From an uncultured Thermoactinomycetaceae bacterium (lineage in GTDB: Bacteria; Bacillota; Bacilli; Thermoactinomycetales; CALJVA01): 64,000 bases of DNA. This document shows positions 4,241-37,294 of this stretch, in pieces. Under the pieces are notes generated by a model. It saw nothing but the letters and a program-made list of their open reading frames with translations. It was not told where the DNA came from and ran no database searches. The translations under genes were made by a program, and so were the position numbers. Where the stretch lies: contig CALJVA010000022.1 of NCBI GenBank assembly GCA_937975135.1, positions 7,118 to 71,117 on the forward strand, read 5' to 3'. The first letter of the stretch is position 1, and each line of letters starts with the position of its first letter.

Positions 4241-4278
4241 AAGAGAGCTTGCCCGATTCGAAAGAGGTGGGTCCTCCG

Positions 4279-5382
4279 ATGAACAAAACGCGTTCTAATC
4301 CCGATTATTTGATTGTCACTGCGATTTTACTTTTATTAACGATCGGTGTGATTATGGTCTACAGTGCCAGTGCCGCCTACGCTTATCATCGATACGGTGA
4401 TCTCTTTTTCTATGCTAAGCGGCAACTTCTCTTTGCGGGCCTCGGTGTTTTCCTCATGTTTGTAGTGGCTCATCTGGATCGAGAAGTGTTTGTAAAATGG
4501 GCCAAGCCTAGTCTATGGGTCTGTTTTATACTATTAGTATTGGTGTTGATCCCCGGTGTTGGTTTGTTGCGGGGTGGTGCGCGTAGTTGGTTAGGCATCG
4601 GTGCTTTTAGTATCCAACCCTCCGAATTTATGAAACTGGCGTTGATCGCTTACCTTTCCTATTCACTGTCAACTTATAGTCAAGGTCTTTCCCGATTTTG
4701 GAAGGATCTGTTCCCACGACTTGCCGTGATAGGTGCAGCTTTTGGTTTAATCATGCTTCAGCCGGATTTGGGAACAGGGACCGTTTTAGTGGGAACCGGT
4801 GTTATTATTCTCTTTGTAGCAGGAGCCCGATTAAAGCATCTCTTCGGGCTCTCACTTCTGGGAGTCGCTGGCTTTACAGCTTTAGTACTCGAAGCACCTT
4901 ACCGAATTCGTCGGATTACAGCTTTTATTGATCCTTGGGAAGATCCTTTGGGAGCAGGTTATCATCTCATTCAATCCTTGTATGCAATTGGTCCCGGTGG
5001 GTTACTGGGATTAGGGCTGGGAATGAGCCGGCAAAAACATTTATATCTCCCTGAACCTCATACGGATTTTATTTTTTCTATTTTGGCAGAGGAGTTTGGT
5101 TTTATTGGAGCCGCGATTGTTATTTTCTTGTTTGCAGTTGTCGTATGGCGAGGATTAAGAACTGCGATTGTAGCACCTGATTTGTTTAGTAGCTTGTTAG
5201 CTACAGGGATCACCTCGATGATTGCCATCCAGGCAATAATCAATATTGGAGTTGTCTCCGGTGCTTTTCCTGTGACGGGGATTACACTGCCCTTTCTAAG
5301 CTATGGAGGCTCCTCGCTTACATTATCTTTGGTGGCAGTAGGGGTATTATTAAATATCTCACGGGATAGTCATAAAATATAG
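4279..5382 (+). CDS. spoVE: SEDS-family peptidoglycan glycosyltransferase, stage V sporulation protein E
   Basis: Motifs GARSW, IQPSEF, QPDLG, YLPEPHTDFIF and LPFLSYGGSS; lies between murD and murG. Confidence 0.9.
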   Translation: MNKTRSNPDYLIVTAILLLLTIGVIMVYSASAAYAYHRYGDLFFYAKRQLLFAGLGVFLMFVVAHLDREVFVKWAKPSLWVCFILLVLVLIPGVGLLRGGARSWLGIGAFSIQPSEFMKLALIAYLSYSLSTYSQGLSRFWKDLFPRLAVIGAAFGLIMLQPDLGTGTVLVGTGVIILFVAGARLKHLFGLSLLGVAGFTALVLEAPYRIRRITAFIDPWEDPLGAGYHLIQSLYAIGPGGLLGLGLGMSRQKHLYLPEPHTDFIFSILAEEFGFIGAAIVIFLFAVVVWRGLRTAIVAPDLFSSLLATGITSMIAIQAIINIGVVSGAFPVTGITLPFLSYGGSSLTLSLVAVGVLLNISRDSHKI

Positions 5383-5407
5383 AAAAAATAAAGCAGAGGG
5401 GATTTTG

Positions 5408-6523
5408 ATGAAGCGGATTTTGCTTTCTGGCGGGGGAACCGGTGGACATATTTATCCGGCCCTTTCAATTATGAAGGCCGTACGTAGACGTTACCCAGAA
5501 GTAGAGGTTGCCTATATCGGAACTAAGGAAGGATTGGAAGCACAAATTGTTCCTAAAGCAGGAGAACTTTCTTTTTATACTGTAGAGGTGCAAGGTTTTA
5601 AACGAAAGCTAAGTTTAGGCAATGTACGAACAGTATATAAATTTTTGTCAGCTACGCGAAAGGCGAAGCAGTACATAAGAGAGTTTCGACCTGATGTGGT
5701 GGTGGGAACAGGAGGATATGTAAGTGGTCCCAGTGTTTATGCAGCATATCAGCTGGGCATTCCTACATTGATTCACGAACAAAATGTTGTTCTAGGACTT
5801 ACAACGCGCTTTTTATCCCGCTATGTTGATCGGGTAGCAATCAGCTTTGAAGGCTCCCGTCAGTATTTGAATCAGGCTAAAAGCGTCATCCTTACAGGTA
5901 ATCCACGGGCTACGGAAGTCGCTCACGCAGATGCGGAAGCAGGGCGTGCTTCCCTGGGACTTTCTTCGGACAAGCCTTTGATTCTTTTCGTCGGTGGAAG
6001 TCGTGGAGCACAACCACTCAATAAGGCTGTTTTGGAGCTGATTCCGAAGGTAAAAGAGGCAGATCAGTTCCATTTTGTTTATGTAACAGGGGAAGTTCAT
6101 TATCAAAAAGTGATGAAGGAGCTAGATCTCGATACGCTCCCCAACTTAACAGTGAAGCCTTTTATATACAATATGCCCGATGTTTTAGCAGCTACCTCTC
6201 TTGTGATCGGTAGAGCAGGGGCTTCCACTTTGGCTGAACTCACTTCGCTCGGGATTCCTTCGATCTTGGTTCCTTCACCTTATGTCACTGCCAACCATCA
6301 GGAGCTGAATGCTCGTTGGATGGAAAAAGAGGGAGCGGTTGTTGTACTATTGGAGAAAGAGTGTAGCGGATCTAAGTTATGGGACATGATCATGGAAATT
6401 ATGACTGATAAAGAGCGACACCAACAGATGAGTATAGCTGCGAAAAAATTGGGGAAACCGGAGGCAGCGGAGGTGCTAGTAGATGAATTGGAGAAAATTG
6501 TACAAGAACGACAAGACCTTTAG
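5408..6523 (+). CDS. murG: Lipid II GlcNAc transferase
   Basis: Motifs GGGTGGHIYP, GTGGYVS, HEQN, GNPR, GGSRGA and RAGAST. Confidence 0.97.
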   Translation: MKRILLSGGGTGGHIYPALSIMKAVRRRYPEVEVAYIGTKEGLEAQIVPKAGELSFYTVEVQGFKRKLSLGNVRTVYKFLSATRKAKQYIREFRPDVVVGTGGYVSGPSVYAAYQLGIPTLIHEQNVVLGLTTRFLSRYVDRVAISFEGSRQYLNQAKSVILTGNPRATEVAHADAEAGRASLGLSSDKPLILFVGGSRGAQPLNKAVLELIPKVKEADQFHFVYVTGEVHYQKVMKELDLDTLPNLTVKPFIYNMPDVLAATSLVIGRAGASTLAELTSLGIPSILVPSPYVTANHQELNARWMEKEGAVVVLLEKECSGSKLWDMIMEIMTDKERHQQMSIAAKKLGKPEAAEVLVDELEKIVQERQDL

Positions 6524-6547
6524 CTTAATCCAATCAGATGGGCTGTG

Positions 6548-6576
6548 GTCACAAAAAAACGGCTTAGGCATAAAAT
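6548..6576 (+). promoter_or_regulatory. Putative SigE promoter upstream of murB
   Basis: GTCACAAA...CATAAAAT with a 13-nt spacer, in the murG-murB gap. Confidence 0.45.
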
Positions 6577-6637
6577 GTCGTATACCAGGTTCAATAGACT
6601 GGGGTCCTAAGCGGGTAGGTAAGGGAGGGGCCCAAGA

Positions 6638-7546
6638 ATGAACGAGGTGGCACACTTATTTAAAGAAGCCGGTATCAAAGATGTGCGCATTGCTGAACCC
6701 ATGTCTCGCCACACGACGTGGAAGGTAGGGGGACCAGTTGACTTTTTTGTCTCTCCACAAAGTAAAGCGGAACTGGAAAGTGCCATGCGCATTGTGCGCG
6801 AAGAAGGATTATCATGGTGGGCGATTGGTCGCGGTTCCAATTTACTGGTCAGAGATAAGGGCTTGCGCGGAGTGGTTATAAAAATGGGTCGGGGAATGGA
6901 TGAGATCGAAGTTACTGGGAACCAAATTATAGCAGGTGGAGGATGTTCCCTGATCCGTTTATCGAAAACGGCTGCTCGGCACGGTTTAACCGGCTTGGAG
7001 TTTGCTGAAGGTATCCCAGGCACTGTAGGTGGAGCAGTCTTTATGAATGCAGGTGCCCACGGCTCCGAATTTGCAGAAGTGTTGAAGTCAGCGGAGATTC
7101 TTCTGGAATCGGGGGAATGGGTCACACTGACAAACGAGGAGCTCGGTTTTCGTTACCGAACTTCGATTCTCCAAAAGGAACGAAAAGGAATTGTTACAAA
7201 AGCCGTTTTTGAGCTGACAGAAGGGAATAAAGAGGAGATCATCCAGCGGATGAATCGTTATAAAGACCACCGTCGCAAGACCCAACCTTTGCAACATCCT
7301 TGTGCTGGCAGCGTGTTTCGCAATCCACCAGGTGACCATGCCGGTCGACTGATTGAAGCATCTGGATTAAAAGGGTATCAAATTGGTGATGCCATGGTTT
7401 CCACTCAGCATGCCAATTTTATTATTAATCGAGGTCAGGCAAAGGCTGAAGATGTGTTGAACCTGATCCATCATATCATGGACACAGTTGAGGAGAAATT
7501 TGGGGTACGGCTCGTACCCGAAGTACGGGTGGTGGGCGAGGGGTAA
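6638..7546 (+). CDS. murB: UDP-N-acetylenolpyruvoylglucosamine reductase
   Basis: Motifs GRGSNLL, GIPGTVGGAVFMNAGA, FRYRTS, GSVFRNP and HANFIIN. Confidence 0.97.
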   Translation: MNEVAHLFKEAGIKDVRIAEPMSRHTTWKVGGPVDFFVSPQSKAELESAMRIVREEGLSWWAIGRGSNLLVRDKGLRGVVIKMGRGMDEIEVTGNQIIAGGGCSLIRLSKTAARHGLTGLEFAEGIPGTVGGAVFMNAGAHGSEFAEVLKSAEILLESGEWVTLTNEELGFRYRTSILQKERKGIVTKAVFELTEGNKEEIIQRMNRYKDHRRKTQPLQHPCAGSVFRNPPGDHAGRLIEASGLKGYQIGDAMVSTQHANFIINRGQAKAEDVLNLIHHIMDTVEEKFGVRLVPEVRVVGEG

Positions 7547-7559
7547 CGGAGGTGAAAGG

Positions 7560-8828
7560 TTGGCGCATTATTTTATTGAAGGTGGAAGACCCCTCTATGG
7601 AAAAGTTCGTGTTCAGGGTGCCAAAAATGCTGCCCTACCGATCCTAGCTGCCACTGTACTTGCAGAAGGCATCCATGAAATTCATGACGTACCTCAGTTA
7701 TCGGATATAGAGGCGATGGGTCGTATTTTGGAATCATTAGGTGTAAAGGTAAAACGGAATGGGAATACAGTGTATTTGGATACAAGGACAATTCATAGCT
7801 CCTATATTCCCGCTTCATTGATGAAGCGAATGCGCTCATCGATCTTTTTAATGGGGCCATTGTTAGCACGTCAACGAGAAGTGTGTGTGACACGACCTGG
7901 AGGATGTGCGATTGGAGAGCGTCCCATTGATTTACATCTTAAAGGACTTCGTCTCTTAGGGGCTGAAGTGATAGAAAAAGATGGACAGATCCGGTGTACA
8001 GCAAAAAAGTTGACCGGACGGAAAGTACGCTTTGAACTGCCCAGTGTAGGAGCAACGGAAAATATAATGATGGCCGCTGTGCGAGCAAATGGAGTTACCA
8101 TCATTCAAAATGCTGCCCGAGAACCGGAAATCATCGATTTACAAAACTTTTTAAATGGGATGGGTGCCCAGATTCGTGGGGCAGGCACTTCGCAAATCGT
8201 GATCCATGGTGTAGAACACCTCACACCGATTTCATACCGGATTATTCCGGATCGGATTGTGACCGGTACATTAGCTGCAGCAGTTGCAGCAACAGGTGGT
8301 GAGGTGATCATGACCCATACAGTTCCAGAACACTCAACTACGGTATTAAATTTGCTTCGTCAAGCAGGTGCAACAATAGCAGCTGATAAAGATACCCTTA
8401 AAGTCTCAGGAAAGAAGAGGTTACAAGGAGTCGGTCGCATAGTAACCGAACCTTATCCGGGATTCCCTACCGATATGCAACCACAAATGATGGCTGTACT
8501 TGCTACTGCAACAGGTAAAAGTATGATGGAAGAGCGGATCTTTGATGCGCGATTGAAACATGTTCGAGAGTTAAACCGGATGGGCGCCTCCATAACTATA
8601 GAAAAGCAGGGGGTTCAAATTTGTGGTGTTCCCACACTGAAAGGGGCAGATGTTCAGGCTACTGACCTTCGAGCAGGAGCTGCACTTGTAATTGCAGGAT
8701 TATGTGCGGAAGGAACGACGCGTGTAAGTGGGATCGAACATATTGAACGGGGATATGAACAATTGGACCTCGTTTTTCAGCAATTGGGAGGAAAAGTAGC
8801 GCGAATGCCAGCAAGTGCTGTCAATTAG
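7560..8828 (+). CDS. murA: UDP-N-acetylglucosamine 1-carboxyvinyltransferase (dcw-linked paralogue)
   Basis: Motifs GAKNAALP, PGGCAIGERPIDLH (catalytic Cys), SVGATEN, YPGFPTDMQ and DLRAGAAL. GGAGGTG lies before TTG 7560. Confidence 0.92.
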   Translation: MAHYFIEGGRPLYGKVRVQGAKNAALPILAATVLAEGIHEIHDVPQLSDIEAMGRILESLGVKVKRNGNTVYLDTRTIHSSYIPASLMKRMRSSIFLMGPLLARQREVCVTRPGGCAIGERPIDLHLKGLRLLGAEVIEKDGQIRCTAKKLTGRKVRFELPSVGATENIMMAAVRANGVTIIQNAAREPEIIDLQNFLNGMGAQIRGAGTSQIVIHGVEHLTPISYRIIPDRIVTGTLAAAVAATGGEVIMTHTVPEHSTTVLNLLRQAGATIAADKDTLKVSGKKRLQGVGRIVTEPYPGFPTDMQPQMMAVLATATGKSMMEERIFDARLKHVRELNRMGASITIEKQGVQICGVPTLKGADVQATDLRAGAALVIAGLCAEGTTRVSGIEHIERGYEQLDLVFQQLGGKVARMPASAVN

Positions 8829-9081
8829 TACTATTAGGATTGGGAAATTAAAGAAGGTAGGAGCAAGGATCCTCGCTTGAAAAAAGAAGCAACCTACAGC
8901 AGCTCATTTTAGCTTGTGGAGCAGGAACGGGATTATTGCTTCCCGTCACCGGTATTTTCACATTGCTTTTAGTGGCTGCTGTTTTTTTACTCATTTTTTA
9001 TATAAAAGGGCCTTTTTTCCTTAGCTTTTTGTGGTAACATAAAATGAGGACTTGGTTCAGTTTTGGAAAGGGGTCCTCACA

Positions 9082-9801
9082 ATGCAGGGACGTATTCCAC
9101 CTTTTCGTAGGTTATCTCAGTCAAAACGACCACCTGCACGACGTGCGATAGGGTTTGTGATGCTGTTTTTTATCGGTGTGCTTGTTGTTCTATTCTTTAA
9201 TTCTGACCTGAACAAAATTGACCAAGTAGAGATTAAAGGAAATTATTTTGTTACGGATAATGAAGTGCGCAAAGCAGCTGGCTTGGCTGAAGAGTATGAT
9301 TTTTTTCGCTGGGATGCTCAACAAGCACAGAAGGCGATAGAGCAATTATCCGTAGTGGAAAAAGTATCTATAGAACGGTCTTTTCCGGGATTGATCCGTA
9401 TTCATATTCAGGAGTCGGAGATGGTTGCGCTGTGGGTCACTCAAGAGGGAAGGTTTCCTTTATTAGCTAATGGAAGTATTCCACATCAACATTCTTGGGG
9501 AAATCAACCCTTTGCTGGACCCGTGATCAAAGGTTACTCCAACCCTAAGGATGTACAAGCCCTAGCGAAAGAGTTAGTCAAAGTTCCTGCCGAGATTCGG
9601 ACGAATTTACTGGAAATTACGCCGCAAGATAATGAAATTTATACCAATCTACTGCAAATTTCAAGTCGTCACGGACATCGAATCTATATCCAGAGAGAAG
9701 ATTTGGAGCAAAAAATGAAGCTATATCCTCGGTTTCAAAATGAGCCGGAGGGAGACCTTTACTTTTTAGATACCACACGATATGTTCCAAGTGAAACCTA
9801 A
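9082..9801 (+). CDS. divIB: Cell division protein DivIB/FtsQ
   Basis: Short basic N-terminus, one TM helix, POTRA-like segment (IKGN...SIERSFPGLIRIHIQE); lies before ftsA. Confidence 0.8.
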   Translation: MQGRIPPFRRLSQSKRPPARRAIGFVMLFFIGVLVVLFFNSDLNKIDQVEIKGNYFVTDNEVRKAAGLAEEYDFFRWDAQQAQKAIEQLSVVEKVSIERSFPGLIRIHIQESEMVALWVTQEGRFPLLANGSIPHQHSWGNQPFAGPVIKGYSNPKDVQALAKELVKVPAEIRTNLLEITPQDNEIYTNLLQISSRHGHRIYIQREDLEQKMKLYPRFQNEPEGDLYFLDTTRYVPSET

Positions 9802-10004
9802 GTATCAGCAAAGATTGAATGATAGGAAGAACCACTTTAGTCCCAATACTTAAGTTATTGCGGCGAAATAAGGGCATTTGTATAGCTTGGGTCACTTTGG
9901 GTTGAGAGGTTAAAATGGGAAGTCTCATATGGATCTTGATGGAGTCTTTGATAACCGATTTTTGAGGCTATTCCTTCAAACATCAGAAAAAATTTACCGG
10001 AGAA

Positions 10005-10032
10005 AAAGGTTAAATACCTTTTTATGTTGAAT
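10005..10032 (+). promoter_or_regulatory. Putative SigH promoter of ftsAZ
   Basis: AAAGGTTAA-12 nt-GTTGAAT against consensus RNAGGAWWW-11/12-RNNGAAT. B. subtilis ftsAZ has a SigH promoter. Confidence 0.5.
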
Positions 10033-10129
10033 TAATCACGTATGTCATCCTCTTCACTTTCTCCCTGTATTTTTAAAGAACCCTTTCCACCACTACGGGA
10101 TCATTCTCGGGCGAGGAGGTGCCCATGTT

Positions 10130-11356
10130 TTGAATAAATACTTAATCAGCCTAGATATCGGAACTTCAAAAGTCCGGGTGATCGTTGCCGAAGTGGCGGA
10201 TGAAAATGCGCACATTGTCGGCGTGGGCTCGGCTGTTTCCAGGGGGATGAAGAAGGGAGCCATTATTGATATCGACGAAGCCGTCCAATCAATCCGCGAA
10301 GCGGTGGAGGATGCTGAGCGGATGGTAGGTATAGAGATAACGGGAGTTTATGTTGGGATTTCAGGCAATCATATTTCATTACAACCAAGTCATGGTGTAG
10401 TTGCTGTTTCCAGTGAGGACCGGGAAATCGGTTCGCAAGATATTGAACGCGTTTTACAAGCGGCTCGTGTAGTTGCCTTGCCACCAGAAAGGATTGTCGT
10501 CGAAGTTGTTCCCAAACAGTTTGTCGTTGATGGTCTTACAGGCATTCAGGATCCCCATGGGATGATCGGTGTACGACTCGAAGTAGAAGGACTAATTGTT
10601 ACAGGATCTAGAACGATTGTTCATAATGTTTTGCGATGTGTAGAAAAAGCATCACTCAGTGTATTGGGAATTGTTCTTCTCCCATTGGCTACAAGTGAAA
10701 TTTCGCTATCCTTGGATGAAAAAAATCTTGGTGTTGTCCTTGCTGATATCGGCGGGGGTACGACCACCCTCACGATTTTTCAACAAGGGAATCTAGAGGC
10801 AACCGTTGATCTTCCCATTGGTGGGGAATATATTACCAATGATATTGCGATTGGATTGCGTACACAGACAGAAGTAGCCCAGAAATTAAAAGAAGAATAC
10901 GGGGTTGCAGTTGTGGAAGAAGCATCCCGTGAACTCACATTTCCCGTTCCGACCATCGGAACTTACAAGGAGCGTATGGTATCACAGTTGGAGCTTGCCC
11001 ATATTATTGAACCACGGATTTCAGAAATATTTCAATTGCTACGACAACAAGTGATAAAGTTGGGTTATTCCCCAGAACCGGCAGGTGGGTTTGTTCTGAC
11101 AGGTGGTGTCTTATCGATACCCCATATTTCAAGGGTAGCAATGAATGAACTGGGTCAAGCCGTCCGCGTCGCGATTCCTGAAGCCAATGGTGTTCAGGAT
11201 CCATCTTATACGGGCAGTGTGGGAATGATTTATTATCTTCACCGCCGACGCTTGGCTCACTTCTCAGAACATGGGACTGAGACAGTCCGTCATAAATCGA
11301 AGCAAAATCCAACCGCTTTTGAACGGATGAAGAATTGGTTGAGCGAATTTATTTAA
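10130..11356 (+). CDS. ftsA: Cell division protein FtsA
   Basis: Motifs LDIGTSK, GVRLE, DIGGGTT and LTGG. TTG start 9 nt after GGAGGT. Confidence 0.95.
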
Positions 11357-11412
11357 ATTCCGCCCAAGGATGCCAAAGGGCAATTATGATCAAAAAATGG
11401 AGGGGACAAGCC

Positions 11413-12510
11413 ATGTTGGAATTCGAAATGGAAGTGGATCAGGTTGCACAGATTAAAGTCATTGGCGTAGGTGGGGGAGGAAGTAATGCCGTAAACCGGA
11501 TGATTGAGAGCGGTGTACAGGGTGTTGAATTTATTGCTGTCAATACCGATGCTCAAGCATTGGTCCATTCCAAGGCGGCTACTAAACTCCAGATTGGAGA
11601 AAAACTAACAAGGGGGTTAGGTGCAGGAGCCAACCCAGAGATTGGGAAAAAGGCTGCAGAGGAAAGTAGAGAAATGATCGAAAATTCATTGCGAGGAGCA
11701 GATATGGTATTTGTCACCGCCGGCATGGGTGGAGGAACGGGAACTGGAGCTGCCCCAGAGATTGCAGCAATCGCTCGGGAAATTGGTGCATTAACCGTTG
11801 GAGTGGTTACACGTCCTTTTACTTTCGAAGGTCGGAAACGTTCACTACAAGCGGAAAAAGGAGTAGCTGAGTTAAAAGATAAGGTAGATACATTGATTGT
11901 CATTCCCAATGACCGCTTACTCGAAATTGTGGATAAGAATACTCCCATGATCGAAGCTTTTCGTGAAGCAGATAATGTTTTGCGGCAAGGTGTACAAGGA
12001 ATTTCTGACTTGATTGCTGTGCCTGGTCTGATCAATCTTGACTTCGCAGATGTGAAAACGATCATGACTGAGCGTGGTTCTGCCTTGATGGGGATTGGCT
12101 CGGCCTCAGGGGAGCAACGGGCTGCTGAAGCAGCAAAAAAATCGATCTGTAGTCCTTTGCTGGAGACATCCATTGACGGTGCACGTGGTGTAATTATGAA
12201 TATTACAGGGGGAACCAATCTAAGCTTGTATGAAGTAAATGAAGCGGCGGATATTGTTACCTCGGCAGCTCACCAGGAAGTAAATATGATTTTTGGTGCT
12301 GTGATTAATGAAGATCTCAAGGATGAGATCGTGGTTACGGTCATTGCTACAGGATTTGATCATCAGGAAGAACGTGGAAAACAGCGTAAGCCCCAGTTTA
12401 AACTAGAGGAAGAGGGATCGGATCGTAATGTGGTTATTCAACCATTTAATCCTGACCTTGACGATAACTTAGAAATCCCTACCTTTCTCCGGTTTCGTCA
12501 GAAAAAATAA
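11413..12510 (+). CDS. ftsZ: Cell division protein FtsZ
   Basis: Tubulin signature [16 protein letters not shown], and C-terminal EIPTFLR peptide. Confidence 0.98.
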
Positions 12511-26175: not shown

Positions 26176-26195
26176 GCTCAAGACAACTAAAATGG

Positions 26196-26842
<647 letters not shown>

Positions 26843-26855
26843 TCCTTGTTCGTCA

Positions 26856-26946
26856 CCCTTTAAGATAGTCCTGTGAGGCTGGCAAGGGGGACACACTACC
26901 TGTGTGCTTATTTCCTCTTGCCCTTTGGGTAAAGAGGTTTTTTATT
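26856..26946 (+). promoter_or_regulatory. PyrR-binding loop and attenuator 2
   Basis: CCTTTAAGATAGTCCTGTGAGGCTGGCAAGG, then terminator CCTCTT...AAGAGG plus T run. Confidence 0.9.
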
Positions 26947-26967: not shown

Positions 26968-28350
26968 ATGAATCAGAAAATACTTATGGATGTTCACGAA
27001 AAACCGAAAATCCTTTCCTGGCTGGCCCTTAGTATGCAACATCTATTTGCTATGTTTGGGGCTACCATCTTAGTTCCTTTGTTAACAGGGTTAGATCCGG
27101 CGGTCACGCTATTGACAAGTGGATTGGGAACCATTGCCTATTTACTCGTAACACGAGGAAAAATTCCAGCCTATCTGGGATCCTCCTTTGCATTTATCGT
27201 TCCAATTATCACTGTATCCCAGACAGAAGGAATTGGTGCAGCATTATTTGGTTGTATTCTTTCGGGATTGGTGTATGGAGTTGTTGCTCTAATAATCTTC
27301 CGGTTTGGTGTTCATTGGCTCAATCATCTCCTCCCCCCTGTTGTCATTGGTCCTGTAGTTATTGTCAAGGGTTTAGCCCTGGCGGGTGTGGCGATTGAGA
27401 TGGCTAGTATGACAGAAGTAACCCGAGCTTTACCGGCTACCCTTTCGGAGTTTCAGTCCTTACCTGGAACGGTGCAAAATATTGATGAAGAAGCAAATAC
27501 GGTAACTCTCCAGGTATACTCCTTGAAACATTTTTTAGTAGCTCTTGCGACTCTCGCCTTTGCGATTATTGCTAGCCTGTTTTTAAGAGGTTTCTTTAAC
27601 CTGATTCCCATCTTGATCGGGATTGTTGGCGGATATATTGTTGCATTTTTTGCAGGAATGGTTGATCTTGCTCCTGTAAAGGAAGCAAGCTGGTTTGCAC
27701 TGCCTACCTTTACGTTTCCTGAGGTCTCTTGGAAAGCAGCACTTGTCATCGTTCCCGTTGCTTTGGTCACTCTTGCCGAACATATTGGGCACTTGATGGT
27801 TACTAGTGGGATTATGGGCCGTGATTTGGCGAAAAATCCGGGGCTTCATCGTTCGTTATTAGGAGATGGAATTGCTACTTCGATTGCTTCCCTAATCGGT
27901 GGTCCTCCCAATACAACTTATGGAGAAAATATTGGTGTATTGGCTATCACACGAATTTTTAGTGTTTATGTAATTGGCGGAGCAGCTGTCCTTGCGATGT
28001 GTTTCTCTTTTATCGGTAAACTCTCTGCGCTGATTACTACCATCCCTTCCGCTGTAATGGGTGGAGTCTGCATTCTCCTCTTTGGGATTATTGCTTCAGC
28101 TGGGTTGCGGATGTTGGTGGAACATGAGGTTGATTTTGGCAATCGGCGCAACCTGATCATAGCCTCTGTTGTCCTTGTGATTGGTGTAGGAGGTGCCGCC
28201 CTCCGATTCGTAGGGATTGACTTCCAAGTAGAAGGGATGGCCTTGGCAACATTTGTAGGAGTGGGTCTTAACCTGATTCTTCCCCGTGAGGAGAATAAGA
28301 AGGATAATGTCTCTTTGCATCGATTAAAGACAGTGGATGAGACGGTATAA
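26968..28350 (+). CDS. pyrP: Uracil permease (NCS2)
   Basis: Motifs QHLFAMFGATILVP, YLGSSFAF, EHIGH and PNTTYGEN. Confidence 0.93.
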   Translation: MNQKILMDVHEKPKILSWLALSMQHLFAMFGATILVPLLTGLDPAVTLLTSGLGTIAYLLVTRGKIPAYLGSSFAFIVPIITVSQTEGIGAALFGCILSGLVYGVVALIIFRFGVHWLNHLLPPVVIGPVVIVKGLALAGVAIEMASMTEVTRALPATLSEFQSLPGTVQNIDEEANTVTLQVYSLKHFLVALATLAFAIIASLFLRGFFNLIPILIGIVGGYIVAFFAGMVDLAPVKEASWFALPTFTFPEVSWKAALVIVPVALVTLAEHIGHLMVTSGIMGRDLAKNPGLHRSLLGDGIATSIASLIGGPPNTTYGENIGVLAITRIFSVYVIGGAAVLAMCFSFIGKLSALITTIPSAVMGGVCILLFGIIASAGLRMLVEHEVDFGNRRNLIIASVVLVIGVGGAALRFVGIDFQVEGMALATFVGVGLNLILPREENKKDNVSLHRLKTVDETV

Positions 28351-28396
28351 ACATAGTGTTTTAAGATGAATGGCAAGGAATATAAATAGAATCTTA

Positions 28397-28500
28397 TTCC
28401 TTTAATCCAGTCCCGTGAGGCTGAAAAGGAGCTCTTCCTCCTTGGGGATCAAGGGGGTTTGTTACTGTGCACTCCTTCCTGGACTGGGAGGAGTTTTTTT
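28397..28500 (+). promoter_or_regulatory. PyrR-binding loop and attenuator 3
   Basis: CCTTTAATCCAGTCCCGTGAGGCTGAAAAGG, then terminator ACTCCTTCC...GGGAGGAGT plus T run. Confidence 0.9.
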
Positions 28501-28542
28501 GTTGGATTGGATAAAAAAGTTTAAAGGACATGGGGGATTAAG

Positions 28543-29457
28543 ATGAATACAAAAAGGCATCTTTTAGACATTCAATCCTTGTCCACAGGAGAAGTCGAAG
28601 AGATTTTGGAACGAGCAGAGTACTGGAAAACTTCTGGGGAGAATCACCAACCCTTTTCGGACTGTTTTGTGGCCAATCTCTTTTATGAGCCTAGTACACG
28701 GACACGTTTTTCCTTTGAAATTGCCGAAAAGAAGTTGGGAGTTCAGATCCTTTCCTTCGATAAGAATACTTCTAGCGTGACCAAGGGAGAAACCCTTTGG
28801 GATACCTTACAAACCTTGGCTGCTTTAGGAGTAGAGGTTGCGGTGATTCGCCACCCAGAGTCTGGAATCATCCATTCCTTAGCCAAGCATTCCCCTGCAG
28901 TAAGTTTAATTAATGCCGGTGATGGGATTCATGCTCATCCTACGCAGGCGTTGCTCGATTTATTTACATTGAAAGAGCACTTTCGTGCTTTAACAGGATT
29001 GACTGTGGCGGTGATCGGTGATTTACGTCATAGCCGTGTAGCGCGTTCTAGTGTAGCCGCATTAAAAAAATGTGGCGTAACGGTGCTATTAAGTAGCCCT
29101 GAGGAGATGCGCGCTTCGGATCTTGAAGAGGGTGCGTCCTTTGTCCCTATCGACGAAGCTGTGAGTCAGGCAGATGCGGTTATGATGTTGCGGGTACAGC
29201 TAGAACGTCATACAAATTCACTAGTTACTGGAAAAGAAGAGTATCATCAGCGTTACGGGCTTACAATGGAGCGACTTTCCCAGATGAAACCTCAAGCCGT
29301 GATACTCCATCCTGGACCTGTAAATCGGAATGTGGAGATTGCGTCAAACTTAGTGGAACATCCTCGTTCCCTGATTGGAAAGCAGGTAGAAAATGGGGTT
29401 TATATCCGGATGGCTGTTTTGGAACGGGTGATGAGGCAAAGGAGGAAAAGAGGATGA
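28543..29457 (+). CDS. pyrB: Aspartate carbamoyltransferase
   Basis: Motifs FYEPSTRT, HPTQALLD, GDLRHSRVARS and HPGPVNR. Confidence 0.97.
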   Translation: MNTKRHLLDIQSLSTGEVEEILERAEYWKTSGENHQPFSDCFVANLFYEPSTRTRFSFEIAEKKLGVQILSFDKNTSSVTKGETLWDTLQTLAALGVEVAVIRHPESGIIHSLAKHSPAVSLINAGDGIHAHPTQALLDLFTLKEHFRALTGLTVAVIGDLRHSRVARSSVAALKKCGVTVLLSSPEEMRASDLEEGASFVPIDEAVSQADAVMMLRVQLERHTNSLVTGKEEYHQRYGLTMERLSQMKPQAVILHPGPVNRNVEIASNLVEHPRSLIGKQVENGVYIRMAVLERVMRQRRKRG

Positions 29458-30758
29458 ACTGGTTATTAAAACGGGGACAGTTAATCGATTGGAAGCGAAG
29501 AGAATTGGTTCAAGGCGATGTACGTATCGAGGGAGGACGTGTTGTTGCCATCGGCCCTGACTTACCTGAAGATCATTGCCAGGTTGTTGATGTTGGAGGA
29601 CGATTGATTTCTGCAGGACTAATCGATATGCATGTGCATTTACGGGAGCCTGGATTTGAGGAGAAGGAGACCATTGCCACGGGAACTCGAGCAGCAGCGC
29701 GTGGGGGTTTTACAACAGTAGCCTGTATGCCCAATACAAACCCGATCACCGATTCTCCCCAGGTGGTGCAAAGGATTCGCGAGATCGCAGAGCACGAAGG
29801 AAGCGTGCGGGTATTACCAATTGGCGCCATTACCGTCGGAGAAAAGGGGGAAGAGTTAACGGATCTTGTTGCCTTAAAAGAAGCGGGAATTGTCGCCATT
29901 TCCGATGATGGTGTCGGGGTACAAAGCAGTCGGGTGATGAAAGAGGCGATGCAAGCAGCTGCTCGTTTAAACTTGCCAGTGGTGGCCCATTGCGAAGATG
30001 ATACCCTTGCAGCCGAGGGTTGCGTCCATGAAGGAGCATTTGCTGCGAAATACGGATTAAAGGGCATTCCGAGTGAAGCAGAGGCGGTTCATGTAGGGCG
30101 AGATATTTTGTTAGCTGAGGCGACGGGGGTCCATTACCATGTATGTCATATTAGCGCAGAAAGCTCCGTCCGTTTGGTCCGAGATGCCAAGGCGCGTGGA
30201 CTTCGAGTTACAGCGGAAGTGACGCCTCACCATTTATTGCTCTGTGAGGAAGATCTCCCTGGACCTGATCCGAATTTTAAGATGAACCCTCCCCTTCGCT
30301 CCAAAGCGGATCAAGCAGCGCTTTTGGAGGGGTTATTGGACGGGACAATTGATATGATTGCAACGGACCACGCTCCCCATACCGAAGCGGAAAAAGCTCA
30401 GGATATTACCCAAGCACCCTTTGGGATTGTGGGGCTGGAGACTGCTTTTCCACTCTTGTATACGCACTTGGTGTTAACAGGAAAACTGGATCTTCTAGAA
30501 CTGATTGATAAAATGACTCGTCGGCCTGCCGCGTTGTTCTCCCTACCTACTGGGGAGTTGAAGTTAGGCGGGATTGCTGATTTAACCGTGATTGACTTAC
30601 AAGAGGAGCGGAGAATTGATCCGGCCACCTTTTATTCCAAAGGACGTAATACCCCCTTCGCCGGTTGGAAAGTAAAAGGTTGGCCAGTGCTAACGATGGT
30701 TGAAGGTAAGGTTGTATGGGCTGAAGATCATCTTTGGTCGAATAAGGAGGAACGCTAA
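29454..30758 (+). CDS. pyrC: Dihydroorotase
   Basis: Motifs [21 protein letters not shown] and ATDHAPH. Confidence 0.96.
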
Positions 30759-30760
30759 CA

Positions 30761-33700
30761 ATGCCGAAGGATGTGTCGCTTAAAAAGGTATTGGTGATCG
30801 GGTCAGGTCCGATCGTTATTGGTCAGGCGGCGGAGTTTGATTATGCTGGAACCCAAGCTTGCCACGCGCTACGTGAAGAGGGCGTGGAAGTGGTGTTGAT
30901 CAATAGCAACCCAGCGACCATCATGACAGATCCCCATGTTGCGGATCAAGTATATATTGAGCCTCTTACTGTTGAGTTTGTTACCCAAGTAATTCGAAAA
31001 GAGCGTCCAGATGGTTTATTGCCTACCTTGGGAGGACAAACAGGGTTAAACCTCGCTGTAGAGCTGGCACAACAAGGGATATTGGCTCGAGAAAAAGTCC
31101 GGCTATTAGGTACTGATTTAAAGGCGATTCAGCAAGCAGAGGACCGGGAGCAGTTTCGTAGACTGATGCGCGAGATTAATGAACCAACACCGGAAAGTGT
31201 GATCGCTCATACGCTGGAGGAAGCACTCCGCTTTGCAGAAAAGATCGGCTATCCATTAATTGTTCGCCCAGCTTATACCCTTGGGGGAACCGGTGGGGGA
31301 ATCGCCAATAATGAAGGGGAACTGCGTGAAATCGTGGAGAATGGCTTACGCTACAGTCCCATTGGCCAATGTTTGATTGAACAGAGCATCGCAGGCTGGA
31401 AGGAGATCGAATTGGAAGTGGTTCGGGATGGAGCCGGTCAGGCAATTGTTGTCTGTGCCATGGAAAATCTAGATCCTGTGGGTGTTCATACAGGAGATAG
31501 CATTGTATTTGCACCCTGTCAAACATTGAAAGAGCATCAGAGTCAAATGCTTCGCGACTCTGCCTTGCGAATTGTACAAGCCCTCAATCTACGGGGTGGA
31601 TGCAATGTGCAGTATGCTTTAGATCCAACATCCAACAAATATTATGTGATTGAAGTAAATCCAAGAGTAAGCCGTTCCAGTGCTTTGGCCTCTAAGGCCA
31701 CAGGATATCCCATTGCCAAAGTAGCAGCAAAAGTGGCACTGGGATTTCGGCTTGATGAACTGATCCATCCTGAATCAGGAGAAGCTTATGCTTCGGTTGA
31801 ACCACAGATGAACCATATTGTCTGTAAGATTCCCCGTTGGCCCTTTGATAAATTTACCTTGGCCAATCGTCGCTTAGGTACACAAATGAAGGCGACAGGT
31901 GAAGTGATGGCGATTGGTTCTACCGTGGAAGAATCACTGTTAAAGGCAGTTCGTTCTCTGGAGTTGGATGTAAATGGCTTCCTGCATCCTACAGCCTCTT
32001 CCCTATCGGAGCAAGAGCTTAAAAAGCGGCTCCAGCACCCCGATGATGAGCGACTCTTTTTATTGGCAGAAGGATTTCGTCGGGGGATGACAATCGAAGA
32101 ATTACACGACCTTACTCGGATCGATTCCTATTTTCTTGCTAAAATTGCCGGGATTGTTGCCATGGAACAAAGTTTAGCATCATCGAAGGGTTGGAATCGA
32201 GAACAATTGTTAACGGCCAAAAAGATGGGCTTTACGGACCGGACCATTGCCGATTTAGTGGGAGAAAAAGAAGTGACCATTCGAAAGGAACGGTTGAAGG
32301 CAGGTATTTTTCCTGTGTTTAAAAAGGTGGACACCCGTGTATTGAATAGAAATGTGGAAACACCTTGCTTTTATTCTACCTATGAAGGGCAAGGGGAACA
32401 GGTACTAGCTAGGGAAAAGCCTTGTGTCGTAGTACTCGGTTCTGGTCCGATTCAAATCGGGCAAGGGGTGGAATTTGACTACGCTACCGTACATGCGATT
32501 AAAGCCATCCAGGAGATGGGTCTGGAGGCAGTGATTATTAATAACAATCCAGAAACGGTTTCAACGGATTATCAATTTTCAGATCGACTCTATTTTGAAC
32601 CCCTACATATAGAAGATGTGCTCCACATTATTGAACGGGAGAATCCGCTTGGTGTCATTGTACAATTTGGCGGGCAAACCTCTCTTAATTTGGCTCGTAG
32701 CTTGGCAGAGCATGGAGTGACTATTTTAGGAACCTCCTTAGAGGAGATTGACCGTGCGGAAAACCGTGAGAAATTTGAGCAGTTGCTGGAAGAGCTGAAA
32801 ATTGAGCGACCTCCTGGGGTAACAGCAACCTCTGTTTCAGAGGCGATGAATAAAGCAGCGGCCCTCGGTTTCCCTGTCTTGGTCCGTCCTTCCTATGTAT
32901 TGGGAGGTAGGGCGATGGAAATCGTTCACAACCAACAAGAGCTGCTTTCCTATATCGAGGCAGCGGTAGAGATTAATCCTGAGCAGCCAGTTTTAATTGA
33001 CCGTTATCTAACGGGGAAGGAATTGGAGGTAGATGCCATATCCGATGGTAAGCAGGTGCTAATCGCTGGAATTATGGAGCATATTGAACGTTCTGGAGTT
33101 CATTCAGGGGATTCCATCGCAATCTATCCGGCACAATCGATTAGTGCAGCTCAGAAGGAGCGCATTGTGGAGATAACGACAAAGATCGCCTTGGCTCTTA
33201 AAACGAAGGGACTTATCAATATCCAGTTTGTTCTTACAGAGGATGAGCCGGTGGTCATCGAAGTAAACCCCCGGGCCTCACGCACATTACCTTTTTTAAG
33301 CAAAGTGACTCGATTGCCAATGGCTCAAGTGGGAACACGGATTATGATGGGACAAACATTAGAGGAATTAGGTTATTCAGGAGGACTCTGGGAAGAAAGT
33401 GATCAGGTTGCCGTCAAAGTTCCCGTTTTCTCCTTTGCTAAGTTGCGCCGTGTCGACATTATGTTGGGGCCAGAGATGAAATCAACCGGGGAGGTTATGG
33501 GGCGGGATCAAGAGGTTCGCCGAGCAATTTATAAGGGATTACTTGCGGCTGGAGTTTGTCTTCCTCGCTTTGGAACCGTGATTGTAACCCTAGGAGACAA
33601 GGAGAAACCCGAAGCAGTTGCTCTTTGTCAACGCTTTTATCAGTTGGGTTATCGCATTGTAGCAACCCGAGGAACAGCAGCAGTTCTTCGCGACGCCGGT

Positions 33701-33976
33701 TTGCCAGTGACGGAGGTGAATAAGCTGAGCGAAGGATCACCTCATATCCTTGATATGATTCGCAAAGGAGAAGCAGATCTGGTAGTGAACACATGGACAC
33801 AGGGCAGAACACCGGCGCGGGATGGATTCCGCATCCGCAGAGAAGCTGTCGAGCATGGTGTGGCCTGCTTCACTACATTGGATACAGTGGAAGCCCTTCT
33901 ATCTACGTTGGAGTCTACGTATTTAATCGCGGAACCCATCGATGTCCCTGTATATGGAAAAAAGAATGTGATTTAG
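30761..33976 (+). CDS. carB: Carbamoyl-phosphate synthase large subunit
   Basis: Two ATP-grasp halves ([31 protein letters not shown]; [23 protein letters not shown]) and a C-terminal MGS domain. Confidence 0.96.
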
Positions 33977-34094
33977 TATTATAACATTCTACGAAAAAAC
34001 TTTTTTACATGAGAGTTCCCTGAACCTATATGGGCTTTGCCTCTGTGTATCAATTTGAGTATGAGCTTTCTTAATGAAGGAGGACAAACAACTT

Positions 34095-34814
34095 ATGGAA
34101 AAAGCATCCCCAAAGCAGCAACGTGTGATTGTTGCGCTTGATTTTCCGACGATCCAGACGGCAGAATCATTTTTATCACTTTGGGATATAGAGGAGAAGC
34201 TTTTTGTCAAAGTGGGGATGCAGCTTTTTTATACAGCGGGCCCCACTTGGGTGGCAAAATTGGTGGAGCAAGGCTATGCTGTTTTTCTCGATTTGAAGCT
34301 GCACGATATCCCAAATACCGTTGCCGGCGCAATTCGTTCCCTTGCTCATTTGGGAGTTAAGATGATTACCCTACATGCTGCTGGAGGACGAGCTATGATG
34401 GAAGCGGCAAAGGAAGCGGCAAGTCAGTCTGCGGGGCTTCGCCTGTTGGCAGTAACACAATTAACCAGTACGGACAAGTATATCTTAAACGAGGAGATTG
34501 GGATTCCGGGCACAGTGGAGGAGTCTGTGGGTCATTATGTAAAGCTTGCTCATACTGCGGGGATGGATGGGGTGATTTGCTCGGGGTGGGAAGCTCCCAT
34601 AGTAAAAACCAAGGCCGGAAAAGATTTTCTTGTGGTTACCCCAGGGATTCGGCTTCCCCAATCCGCAATCCAGGACCAAAAGCGCGTGATGACACCAGAT
34701 ATGGCCATTCAAATGGGTGCCGATTATATTGTGGTTGGCCGCTCGATTACCCAAGCGGCGGATCCCTTAGAAGCTTATCAAAAAATTCAAGAGATGGTAA
34801 GGTGTGCAATCTGA
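34095..34814 (+). CDS. pyrF: Orotidine-5'-phosphate decarboxylase
   Basis: Motifs IVALDF, VKVG, FLDLKLHDIPNTV and VTPGIR. AAGGAGG lies before ATG 34095. Confidence 0.96.
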   Translation: MEKASPKQQRVIVALDFPTIQTAESFLSLWDIEEKLFVKVGMQLFYTAGPTWVAKLVEQGYAVFLDLKLHDIPNTVAGAIRSLAHLGVKMITLHAAGGRAMMEAAKEAASQSAGLRLLAVTQLTSTDKYILNEEIGIPGTVEESVGHYVKLAHTAGMDGVICSGWEAPIVKTKAGKDFLVVTPGIRLPQSAIQDQKRVMTPDMAIQMGADYIVVGRSITQAADPLEAYQKIQEMVRCAI

Positions 34815-34962
34815 TCTCTATATTCTTCAAGGATTGTCATGTATATATTCTTTACAAATCAGTTGTAGCCCCTTTGTGCGGGATAAACATGAATGGGGGT
34901 ACTTTGCTCCCAATGTAAGAAAAGGAGGGTTGGCGCTCACTTGGAGTAGAGCGCCTTGCAAC

Positions 34963-35538
34963 ATGAATCATGGTGAATGGACAATTGAGGAAGCACTAAA
35001 ACGGAGAAATGTGATTACCCGTGGCCACTTTTTACTTTCATCGGGTCGCCACAGTGAAGAGTATATGCAGTGTGCCCGATTACTCCAATATCCAACAGAA
35101 GCCGAAAAGGTGGGACAGGCATTAGCAGCATTTTTTCAGGATCGAGAAATAGATGTGGTAGTGGGTCCTGCCTTGGGAGGAGTTATTATCGCTTATGAAG
35201 TGGCCCGGGCTTTAGGTGTTCCTTCTCTTTTTGCGGAACGAGAAGAAGGCCATATGCGCCTGCGGCGGGGATTCACCATTCAACCCAATGAGCGTGTTTT
35301 GGTAATTGAAGATGTAGTGACTACAGGAGGGTCAGTTCGGGAAGTGCTGGAGCTTTTAAAATCCTATGGTGGAGAGATTGTAGGGATTGGAGCCATTATT
35401 GATCGCAGTGGGGGGAAGGTTTCCTTTGATTATCCCTTTCATGCGCTTCTTTCCCATTCAATCACCAGCTATGAGCCGGAACATTGTCCCCTGTGTCAAG
35501 CGAATATTCCCGTAGTAAAGCCGGGGAGCCGGAGTTAA
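34963..35538 (+). CDS. pyrE: Orotate phosphoribosyltransferase (short type)
   Basis: Motifs GHFLLSSGRHS, GPALGG and PRPP-binding VIEDVVTTGGS. The start is uncertain (in-frame TTG 34930 or ATG 34963). Confidence 0.92.
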   Translation: MNHGEWTIEEALKRRNVITRGHFLLSSGRHSEEYMQCARLLQYPTEAEKVGQALAAFFQDREIDVVVGPALGGVIIAYEVARALGVPSLFAEREEGHMRLRRGFTIQPNERVLVIEDVVTTGGSVREVLELLKSYGGEIVGIGAIIDRSGGKVSFDYPFHALLSHSITSYEPEHCPLCQANIPVVKPGSRS

Positions 35539-35734: not shown

Positions 35735-37294
35735 ATGGTAAAGCGCCTTACTCCTTTTGTAGATCATCTACCCATTCCCCCGGTCCTTAAACCGGTCACC
35801 TGACGTCGGAAATTTACTTTCTATATTGTTCGGATGTTGGAAACAATGAAAAAACTACATCGTGATCTTCCACCTACTCGGATGTGGGGGTATGAAGGAA
35901 GCGTCCCAGGTCCTACCTTTGAAGTTAAAAGAAATGAGCAGGTTCGGGTTTTATGGTTAAATCAATTACCGAAGAAGCATCTACTCCCTGTAGACAAAAC
36001 GATCCATGGTGCGATGGGGACGCCAGAGGTAAGAACTGTGGTCCATCTCCATCATGGTGTTTCGACGCCTTCCAATGATGGGCACCCAGAAGCTTGGTTT
36101 ACCCGAGGATTTAAGCAGACAGGCCCCTTCTTTAGCAAAAGAGTTTATCGTTATGATAATCAGCAACGGGCCTCGAATCTGTGGTATCACGACCATGCTC
36201 TAGGGATTACACGCCTTAACGTATATGCCGGACTGGCTGGAATGTATTTTTTGCGGGACCAAGAGGAGATATCGCTAAACTTGCCTCGAGGGAAATATGA
36301 GATCCCACTCGTTATTCAAGATAAGTCAGTTAATTCCGATGGATCTTTATTTTATCCCAAAGGACCACAACCTCCTTCACCCAATCTCCCCAAGCCTTCC
36401 ATTGTACCTGAATTTTTTGGAGACAAAATTTTGGTTAATGGAAAAATTTGGCCACATTTTGAAGTAGAACCTCGAAAATACCGCTTTCGTATCTTAAATG
36501 CCTCCAATTCTCGCTTTTACACCTTAAGTCTTGACTCTGGGCAGCCTTTTATTCAAATCGGTACCGATGGTGGACTGCTTCGTTCCCCAGTGCTTATCAA
36601 AAAATTAACCCTAGGGCCGGCTGAACGGGCCGATGTCGTTCTTAACTTTTCTAAGTACCGTGGAGAAAAGATCACACTGATCAACAGTGCACCTGCTCCG
36701 TATCCCAATGGGGATCCAGTAGATCCACGAACAACAGGACTCGTTATGCAATTTCGGGTAACCCGTCCCCTCCAAGGTAGAGATACAAGTACAGTTCCCC
36801 CAAGATTGAGTAACCCTCCTCTCTTTCCCTTAAATAAAGTACGCAAGGTTCGTAATCTCGCTTTGGTCGAACGTACTGATCGTTTCGGCAGACTACTGTT
36901 ATTATTGGATGATAAAAGATGGTCTGCTCCTGTTAGTGAGAAACCACTTCTTGGAAGTTATGAACTTTGGCAACTGATTAATACCACACCAGATAACCAT
37001 CCTATCCATCTGCACCTTGTCGACTTCCGCATTTTAAATCGGCAACGCTTTGATGTAAACCACTATAACCGAACCGGTAAGCTTCGCTTTACCTCTCCAC
37101 CCCTTCCTCCTGCGCCTGATGAGCAGGGGCTAAAGGATACTGTTCGGGCCAATCCAGGAGCAGTGACACGGATTATCCCCCGTTTTGTCCCCTATACTGG
37201 AGAGTATGTGTGGCATTGTCACATCCTTGAGCATGAGGATCATGAAATGATGCGCCCCTTTATTGTTGTAGGGAAGAAGCGTGACTCCAAGTAG
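35735..37294 (+). pseudogene. cotA: CotA-like multicopper oxidase with one in-frame TGA at 35801-35803
   Basis: AAAGGAGG RBS, then MVKRLTPFVDHLPIPPVLKPVT*RRKFTFYIVRMLE...LHRDLPPT, collinear with the CotA N-terminus. All four Cu motifs are present (HLHH, WYHDH, HPIHLH, HCHILEHEDHEMM). Confidence 0.8.

Follow-up and report, generated by a model that had tools for sequence, protein, structure and literature searches.

Organization of the pyr operon and the pyrC-carB junction

The window analyzed here is a 64,000-nucleotide stretch (G000:C22:7118-71117) of C22, the longest contig of a metagenome-assembled genome (MAG; 3.06 Mb, 200 contigs, 98.8% complete) denoted G000. The subject of this report is its pyrimidine biosynthesis (pyr) operon, in which carB, which encodes the large carbamoyl phosphate synthetase (CPS) subunit, directly follows pyrC, and carA, the gene for the small subunit, is missing. 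G000 falls within the Thermoactinomycetales, where the closest named CarB proteins are those of Thermoactinomyces daqus and Marininema mesophilum (70-71% identity). The open reading frame (ORF) listing and an NCBIfam scan place lspA and rluD upstream, followed by pyrR-pyrP-pyrB-pyrC-carB-pyrF-pyrE, all above the curated cut-offs. In window coordinates, the features are as follows:

26194..26288, + strand: PyrR-binding attenuator RNA 1, in the pyrR leader (RF00515, 61.4 bits, gathering score 54; G000:C22:33311-33405)
26261..26842, + strand: pyrR (NF003549, 267 bits, cut-off 138; alignment starts at residue 17)
26853..26946, + strand: PyrR-binding attenuator RNA 2, in the pyrR-pyrP spacer (RF00515, 54.1 bits)
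26968..28350, + strand: pyrP, uracil permease of the salvage route (NF007995, 484 bits, cut-off 477)
28395..28503, + strand: PyrR-binding attenuator RNA 3, in the pyrP-pyrB spacer (RF00515, 55.9 bits)
28543..29457, + strand: pyrB, aspartate carbamoyltransferase (NF002032, 372 bits, cut-off 263)
29454..30758, + strand: pyrC, dihydroorotase, 434 aa (NF006837, 639 bits, cut-off 575)
30744..30763, + strand: pyrC-carB deletion junction (Shine-Dalgarno sequence, pyrC TAA, CA, carB ATG)
30761..33976, + strand: carB, lone CPS large subunit, 1071 aa (NF003671, 1510 bits, cut-off 599; TIGR01369, 1487.5 bits, cut-off 1027)
31454..31924, + strand: CarB residues 232-388, with gate and replaced residues (alignment)
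32330..32350, + strand: CarB residues 524-530, where the oligomerization domain ends, reading DTRVLNR instead of DTCAAEF
34074..34814, + strand: pyrF, orotidine monophosphate decarboxylase (NF001273, 291 bits)
34804..35538, + strand: pyrE, orotate phosphoribosyltransferase (TIGR01367, 225 bits)

The pyrR ORF is listed from its first possible start, and the real start probably lies about 45 nt further downstream. An intact pyrD is located on contig C118, as in relatives, and the placement of pyrK and pyrD outside the operon is an order-wide trait, carB-pyrF-pyrE being found in G021 and G009 also.

At the junction, TCGAATAAGGAGGAACGCTAACAATGCCGAAG, the Shine-Dalgarno (SD) sequence AAGGAGG (30744-30750) lies inside the pyrC tail, which encodes SNKEER before the stop codon TAA (30756-30758), and is followed by CA and the carB ATG at 30761. 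The coordinates and the SD position that an initial annotation of this DNA had given are reproduced exactly from the sequence and the ORF listing, and its statement that the window holds no carA-like ORF agrees with both the listing and the NCBIfam scan. Genomes of the same order carry pyrR-pyrP-pyrB-pyrC-carA-carB-pyrF-pyrE, and among the best 80 CarB loci carA lies directly upstream of carB in 75 of the 76 that have upstream flank. The T. daqus PyrC tail, which ends in EQKEDQR, is homologous to that of the window; there it holds the SD sequence of carA and overlaps the carA ATG. The carA ORF was thus cut out almost exactly, with carB inheriting its SD sequence.

The junction is real rather than a product of assembly. 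Twenty public metagenome runs, drawn from compost, faeces and soil in no fewer than 10 studies, contain the interval 30300-31300 of the window in full (all sampled words). Logan contigs from four studies span 30740-30790 with zero indels, one of these contigs being 50.8 kb long at a depth of 44, and the three single-nucleotide polymorphisms (SNPs) found among metagenome contigs in the junction region are all at third codon positions. An assembly deletion, against which the initial annotation had wished the junction to be checked, is ruled out by these four independent assemblies, all of which cross it uninterrupted.

CarB is the only CPS component encoded in the genome

No carA was found in G000 with the TIGR01368 profile, whose only matches (26 and 25 bits, where the cut-off is 307) fall in the glutamine amidotransferase (GATase) domains of GuaA and PyrG, or by tblastn of the genome with CarA from six relatives at E<=10. 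GuaA and PyrG are likewise the only proteins in which class-I GATase domains were detected. The single CarB returned by a TIGR01369 search is that of the window, and the genome-wide counts by which the initial annotation proposed to check its reading are thus zero for carA and one for carB. With the proteins of a relative's arginine cluster as queries, no counterpart of argC, argJ, argB, arg-type carA or argF was found in G000; the relative's arg-type CarB matches just the window CarB, at 50% identity. No ornithine carbamoyltransferase (OTC) was found, the relative's OTC matching PyrB alone by tblastn (30%), and carbamate kinase (arcC) was not found. Since carA, an arg-type CPS, OTC, argCJB and carbamate kinase are all missing, CarB is the only possible source of carbamoyl phosphate in G000, and PyrB is the only consumer found. 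Judged by its gene content, the genome thus encodes a complete PyrR-regulated UMP pathway fed by CarB without CarA.

Three other arrangements were considered and rejected. A carbamate kinase or arginine deiminase pathway as carbamoyl phosphate source would call for arcC or OTC, and neither is present. The initial annotation had mentioned a separately located, PyrR-regulated carA; the whole genome has three RF00515 matches above the gathering score, and all are in the leaders of the pyr operon. It had also offered two explanations for the missing gene, that the enzyme is an ammonia-dependent pyrimidine CPS or that the small subunit of the arginine pathway is borrowed in trans. The latter is refuted for G000, which has no arginine cluster and no carA of any type, and the former is supported, on a sequence basis, by the convergent replacement of otherwise invariant CarB residues, at positions such as R265, N337, F348, D353/Y354 and DTCAAEF 530-536 (E. 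coli numbering), in every long-standing carA-less lineage, as described below.

A TrpG/PabA-type small GATase, present in nearly all relatives of the same order, is also missing from G000, and the biosynthetic repertoire is reduced for a free-living 3-Mb bacterium. A genome-wide move away from GATases, as a PyrG seemingly cut before the His and Glu of its glutaminase triad might have indicated, was rejected in favor of a local misassembly. In pyrG (L002:1906-1959; G000:C33) three independent assemblies have 104 nt at a place that is occupied in the MAG by a 54-nt stretch derived from a high-depth repeat. The corrected gene reads on canonically (...RHRHRY EFNIQYREQL...), and the glutaminase domains are kept in both PyrG and GuaA.

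Age of the carA loss and selection on carB

G000 is the sole member of its family in our genome set, and two metagenomic relatives, L113 (P0003; ENA contig_18892) and L114 (P0004), with CarB proteins 90% and 79% identical to that of G000, were used to date the loss. The three CarB proteins form one clade with support of 1.0, referred to here as f1. L113 has the identical junction (KKEER, stop codon, 2 nt, ATG), while in L114 pyrC is followed by a 65-nt spacer with its own SD sequence and then carB, again with no carA. Across 957 codons, the ratio of nonsynonymous to synonymous divergence (omega; Nei-Gojobori) of carB between G000 and L113, which split after carA was lost, is 0.09 at a synonymous divergence (dS) of 0.58, and for the N-terminal 107 codons it is 0.03. 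Neighboring genes in the same pair give 0.096 (pyrC), 0.127 (pyrB), 0.07 (pyrR) and 0.11 (rluD). Compared with L114, carB has an omega of 0.05 with dS saturated, and the gene is intact (1062-1071 aa) in both G000 and L114. Because omega has been low since the loss of carA, carB has been kept by purifying selection in the absence of CarA. The suggestion in the initial annotation that the junction is old and selected is therefore upheld by an identical junction at dS 0.58, by a 79%-identical relative that also lacks carA, and by carB omega values of 0.03-0.09.

Recurrent loss of carA in the Bacilli

We surveyed 53 genomes of the order, together with a class-wide sample of 401 Bacilli genomes, each at least 90% complete. 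In the order, three genomes retain arg-type carAB and have a pyr-operon carB without a carA of its own. The Planifilum-like genome G015 has an 84-aa in-frame carA remnant between pyrC and carB (L109:7078-7344), in which about 38 N-terminal CarA residues are joined to about 30 C-terminal ones and the glutaminase domain is gone; its congeners are intact. This loss is very recent, as judged from the retention of all signature residues (see below) in G015 CarB. In the Desmospora-like genome G028 a 323-nt scar is found, the last 44 nt of which match the 3' end of carA in its sister G030, and in G007 the pyrC TGA abuts the carB GTG with a 0-nt spacer. The different placement of these three in the CarB tree indicates that the losses were independent.

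At the level of the class, 11 genomes are without carA, and 7 of these keep carB: G000 itself, members of three f31 genera, and members of the f10 genus g86, whose genomes measure about 1 Mb. At the f10 and f31 loci examined, carB is again directly 3' of pyrC. In all, lone carB is intact in at least six lineages besides f1. As read from these genomes, the loss of carA is recurrent, having occurred at least four times in the Thermoactinomycetales and in two other families of Bacilli in addition. Both carA and carB are missing from three genomes of the order (G044, G045 and G046) and from G061, G068, G317 and G332 in the class sample; these organisms presumably depend on uptake of pyrimidines and arginine. 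In L099, a Desulfotomaculum MAG locus, carA is missing from the 6 kb upstream of carB, but the CarB encoded there keeps all the signature residues. The carA of this MAG is probably located elsewhere, and L099 is not counted as an orphan.

The persistence of carB bears directly on an alternative in which the de novo pathway of G000 is already dead, uracil being salvaged by way of PyrP and PyrR/uracil phosphoribosyltransferase, and the pyr genes merely have no visible decay yet. An omega of 0.09 sustained over a dS of 0.58 since the loss, as for essential neighbors, speaks against this idea, even though pyrP and pyrR are both present and G000 has lost other biosynthesis, including the arginine genes and TrpG/PabA-type GATases. 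Similarly, frameshifts in pyrP, carB, pyrF and pyrE of L113, and the joint loss of carA and carB in three genomes of the order, would fit a dying pathway, but carB is intact in G000 and in the 79%-identical L114, as are the six remaining pathway genes of G000; an undamaged lone carB persists in at least six further lineages, and all three metagenome SNPs are at third positions. We regard a dead pathway as unlikely.

A residue signature of CarB proteins without CarA

CarB of G000 is full length, covering residues 1-1053 on the profile with both ATP-grasp halves and the oligomerization and allosteric domains, and its alignment with E. coli CarB (1BXR chain A; 1037 bits) provides the E. coli residue numbers used here. 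C232, A251 and A313 (E. coli A314), which form the ammonia gate, have all been retained. Variants of these gate residues affect the use of glutamine and of free ammonia alike (PMC4655335).

In an alignment of 115 background CarB proteins, 574 columns are at least 95% conserved. Deviations at these columns number 45 in G000, 43 in L113, 39 in L114, 23 in G028, 67 in G007 and 7 in G015, compared with 0-16 in controls. Moreover, the columns that deviate coincide between lineages far more often than expected, with 13 shared by G028 and f1 (2.4 expected, p 2e-8), 27 by G007 and f1 (6.9 expected, p 1e-12) and 12 by G028 and G007 (2.7 expected, p 1e-6).

Conservation was also assessed in a carA-linked set of 76 CarB proteins (from Bacilli, Negativicutes, Bacteroidota and Bdellovibrionota-labelled MAGs, and including arg-type paralogues) plus E. 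coli CarB. In this set R265, N337, T340, D353, Y354, D530, C532, A533 and Y542 (E. coli numbering) are 100% conserved, T531, E535, F536 and T540 99%, F348 97% and A534 91%. G000 replaces the otherwise invariant N233, D258, N336, T339, F346, D351, Y352 and R387 (E. coli 233, 258, 337, 340, 348, 353, 354 and 389), among them by the substitutions N336H, T339S, F346V, D351N, Y352H and R387S, and it has DTRVLNR in place of DTCAAEF (E. coli 530-536). The latter motif, 91-100% conserved in carA-linked CarB proteins, is altered in all long-standing orphan lineages, while the subset of replaced residues differs from orphan to orphan.

Twenty-two signature positions were picked from the Thermoactinomycetales orphans (E. 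coli 233, 254, 258, 265, 292, 333, 337, 340, 348, 353, 354, 389, 530-536, 540, 542 and 552), with f10, f31 and a lone CarB from Bacteroidia standing outside the selection. G000 has replaced 14 of the 22, and the orphans other than G015, which retains them all, have replaced 9-19. In the lineages outside the selection the corresponding numbers are 9-12 for f10, 17-19 for f31 and 13 for the Bacteroidia lone CarB, whose genome also has CarAB. Among carA-linked CarB proteins, 75 of 77 deviate at 0-2 positions, the two exceptions being the arg-type CarB of G007 (8) and Bacteroidia CarB1 (5). The arg-type carA of G007 (L112, G007:C9:3374000-3386000) is itself very divergent, at 215 bits (cut-off 307), and the subunit interaction of this CarA-CarB pair may be altered or weakened. 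Within the Bacteroidia sample (G418-G477), most CarB proteins match model positions 1 to ~935 only, with ORFs of ~940-960 aa, and appear to be without the C-terminal allosteric domain (methylglyoxal synthase-like, MGS-like).

From this pattern we infer that the signature positions make up the surface on which CarA docks and the mouth of the ammonia tunnel, and that they were freed or reshaped after CarA was lost. One of them, betaR265, reportedly helps to form the wall of the tunnel where the subunits meet (Kim and Raushel 2004). If this assignment is right, the pyr-operon CarB proteins of G028 and G007 would pair with no CarA, despite the presence of an arginine CarA in the same cell.

The replacements might instead mark a docking site rebuilt for a non-homologous or very divergent partner, from which CarB would receive glutamine-derived or other donor nitrogen. 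They are indeed non-random and partly conserved inside f1 (A233, E258, H336 and E338 in G000, L113 and L114), but the substitutes differ between independent lineages, as would be expected from relaxed constraint more than from a new partner common to them. In addition, the operon has no extra gene, the only three PyrR sites are all here, and class-I GATase domains are confined to GuaA and PyrG; a substitute partner therefore seems to us quite improbable. As for a carA that exists but was missed through binning or assembly loss, or that resides on a mobile element, the 200 contigs and the one local misassembly in pyrG leave it some room, but at 98.8% completeness, with the ancestral slot empty in four independent assemblies and two diverged relatives, the arg-type cluster missing as a whole, and invariant residues replaced in a way that matches other carA-less genomes and sets G000 apart from all carA-linked CarB proteins, it is very unlikely indeed.

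Proposed mechanism and its weaknesses

We consider it likely, on the comparative evidence above, that CarB of G000 acts as a stand-alone CPS using free ammonia in place of glutamine-derived ammonia. According to this proposal, an ancestor of this Thermoactinomycetales lineage deleted the carA ORF almost exactly and left the carA ribosome-binding site in the pyrC tail before carB. NH3 would then enter through the part of the tunnel once capped by CarA and react with carboxyphosphate, and the resulting carbamate would be phosphorylated, as is consistent with the retention of both ATP-grasp catalytic halves, the ammonia gate and the allosteric domain. Carbamoyl phosphate would pass to PyrB only, because G000 has no OTC, and expression would remain under the three PyrR attenuators. 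Compost, faeces and soil are plausibly ammonia-rich, which counts in favor of this proposal and is in line with the model put forward for Bacteroides.

A more specific version, which we put forward tentatively and think may well be wrong, is that the replacements are adaptive and not mere decay. The face on which CarA once docked would have been remodeled into a port that is open to the solvent and admits ammonia, and a much lower Km for NH3, or a new oligomeric contact, might have come with it. If so, these proteins would constitute a recurrent, sequence-recognizable class of bacterial ammonia-dependent CPS, arising whenever lineages settle in ammonia-rich habitats, and the pyr-operon CarB proteins of G028 and G007 would ignore the arginine CarA of the same cell.

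Several points weigh against the use of free ammonia by a lone CarB. The isolated E. coli large subunit has poor affinity for ammonia, its Km for ammonium being very high (tens to ~100 mM), and efficiency in vivo is uncertain. The ammonia-dependent activity of G000 CarB is a prediction from comparison, and the assignment of the replaced residues to the CarA contact draws on the position reported for betaR265 and on the comparative pattern. Furthermore, the signature positions were selected from some of the orphans that they describe, and the G000 MAG is split over 200 contigs and is locally misassembled in at least one place (pyrG). Finally, 1-nt frameshifts interrupt both pyrP and carB at the L113 locus (3730-12425), where pyrF and pyrE show several more; if real, they would mean that the pathway is dispensable in that lineage. 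These frameshifts may represent either sequencing error or incipient decay of a sister lineage; error is suggested by the fact that an unrelated major facilitator superfamily gene of that contig is broken up as well, and by a contig name that points to a long-read assembly.

The lone carB is nonetheless of interest: here a free-living member of the Bacillota has lost carA by a natural deletion, and its pyrimidine synthesis would have to be fed by CarB alone. With the signature one can test directly which residues of CarB serve CarA only, and it offers a route to annotating ammonia-dependent CPS as well as natural variants for study of ammonia tunnel entry. In practical terms, pathway tools that score CPS as absent when carA is missing may miscall such organisms as pyrimidine auxotrophs.

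Other features of the genome

A multicopper oxidase gene lies 3' of pyrE (window 35834-37294), of which L113 keeps just the last 52 codons (L113:12515-12670). Elsewhere, at G000:C158:1787-4746, a second dihydroorotase-like gene (44% identity to PyrC) adjoins a second gene with a DHO_dh domain (315 aa); the pair may encode dihydropyrimidinase and dihydropyrimidine dehydrogenase for pyrimidine breakdown, which would release ammonia.

Comparison with known carbamoyl phosphate synthetases

Bacterial CPS is taught as an obligate glutamine-dependent heterodimer of CarA and CarB, and we found no description of carA-less Bacillota in the literature. The closest precedent is the lone CarB2 (BT3866) of B. 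thetaiotaomicron. Liu et al. (2021, Cell Rep; PMC8121099) proposed it to be an ammonium-dependent CPS, since it lacks a co-fit glutaminase and is needed specifically when the medium is high in ammonium. The same study proposed CarB2 as an exception among eubacterial CPSs, all of those studied by 2021 being called glutamine dependent (PMC8121099). Like CarB2, CarB of G000 is a CPS large subunit of full length for which no gene of a glutaminase partner occurs nearby or under shared regulation. Direct use of ammonium under ammonium-rich conditions is proposed for both, for G000 as a prediction from selection, recurrence and the residue pattern. The Bacteroidia lone CarB in our sample, from a genome that may not be B. 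thetaiotaomicron itself, deviates at 13 signature positions out of the 22, among them R265, N337, F348, Q254 and F536. On the other hand, CarB2 is an old paralogue used conditionally beside a canonical CarAB, whereas CarB of G000 is the sole CPS, was orphaned by deletion and serves pyrimidines only. It is 70% identical to carA-linked CarB proteins of the Thermoactinomycetales and ~40% identical to the Bacteroidia lone CarB, and in the tree it nests among pyr-type Thermoactinomycetales CarB proteins; it is not orthologous to CarB2 and has a separate origin.

With the canonical Bacillus-type pyr CPS (PyrAA/PyrAB; E. coli CarAB, PDB 1JDB/1BXR) the G000 system shares the three PyrR attenuators, the operon frame, the CarB domains, and the catalytic and gate residues, but it has no small subunit and has replaced 14 of 22 near-invariant positions, including DTCAAEF. 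The B. subtilis gene order pyrB-pyrC-pyrAA-pyrAB-pyrK-pyrD-pyrF-pyrE is likewise departed from in two respects, the loss of pyrAA, which is lineage-specific, and the location of pyrK and pyrD outside the operon, which is order-wide. Free ammonia is also the substrate of vertebrate CPS I (PDB 5DOT/5DOU, PMC4655335), in which the C/A/A gate persists where the old tunnel ends, but there an inactivated glutaminase-like moiety stays fused to the enzyme and N-acetylglutamate is needed, whereas G000 has lost the whole small subunit. According to two papers (PMC8121099 and PMC6245113) that cite the original work of Trotta et al. 1971, the E. coli large subunit in isolation can form carbamoyl phosphate with ammonia as substrate, and thus provides an example of CarB active alone in vitro with its allosteric sites kept, although as a laboratory dissociation product and not as a natural state. 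A lone ammonia-dependent CarB is therefore already known in vitro and has been proposed for Bacteroides; the novelty in G000 and its relatives lies in how the lone CarB arose, by deletion, in its being the sole CPS, in the repeated occurrence of the loss, and in a residue signature that is diagnostic.

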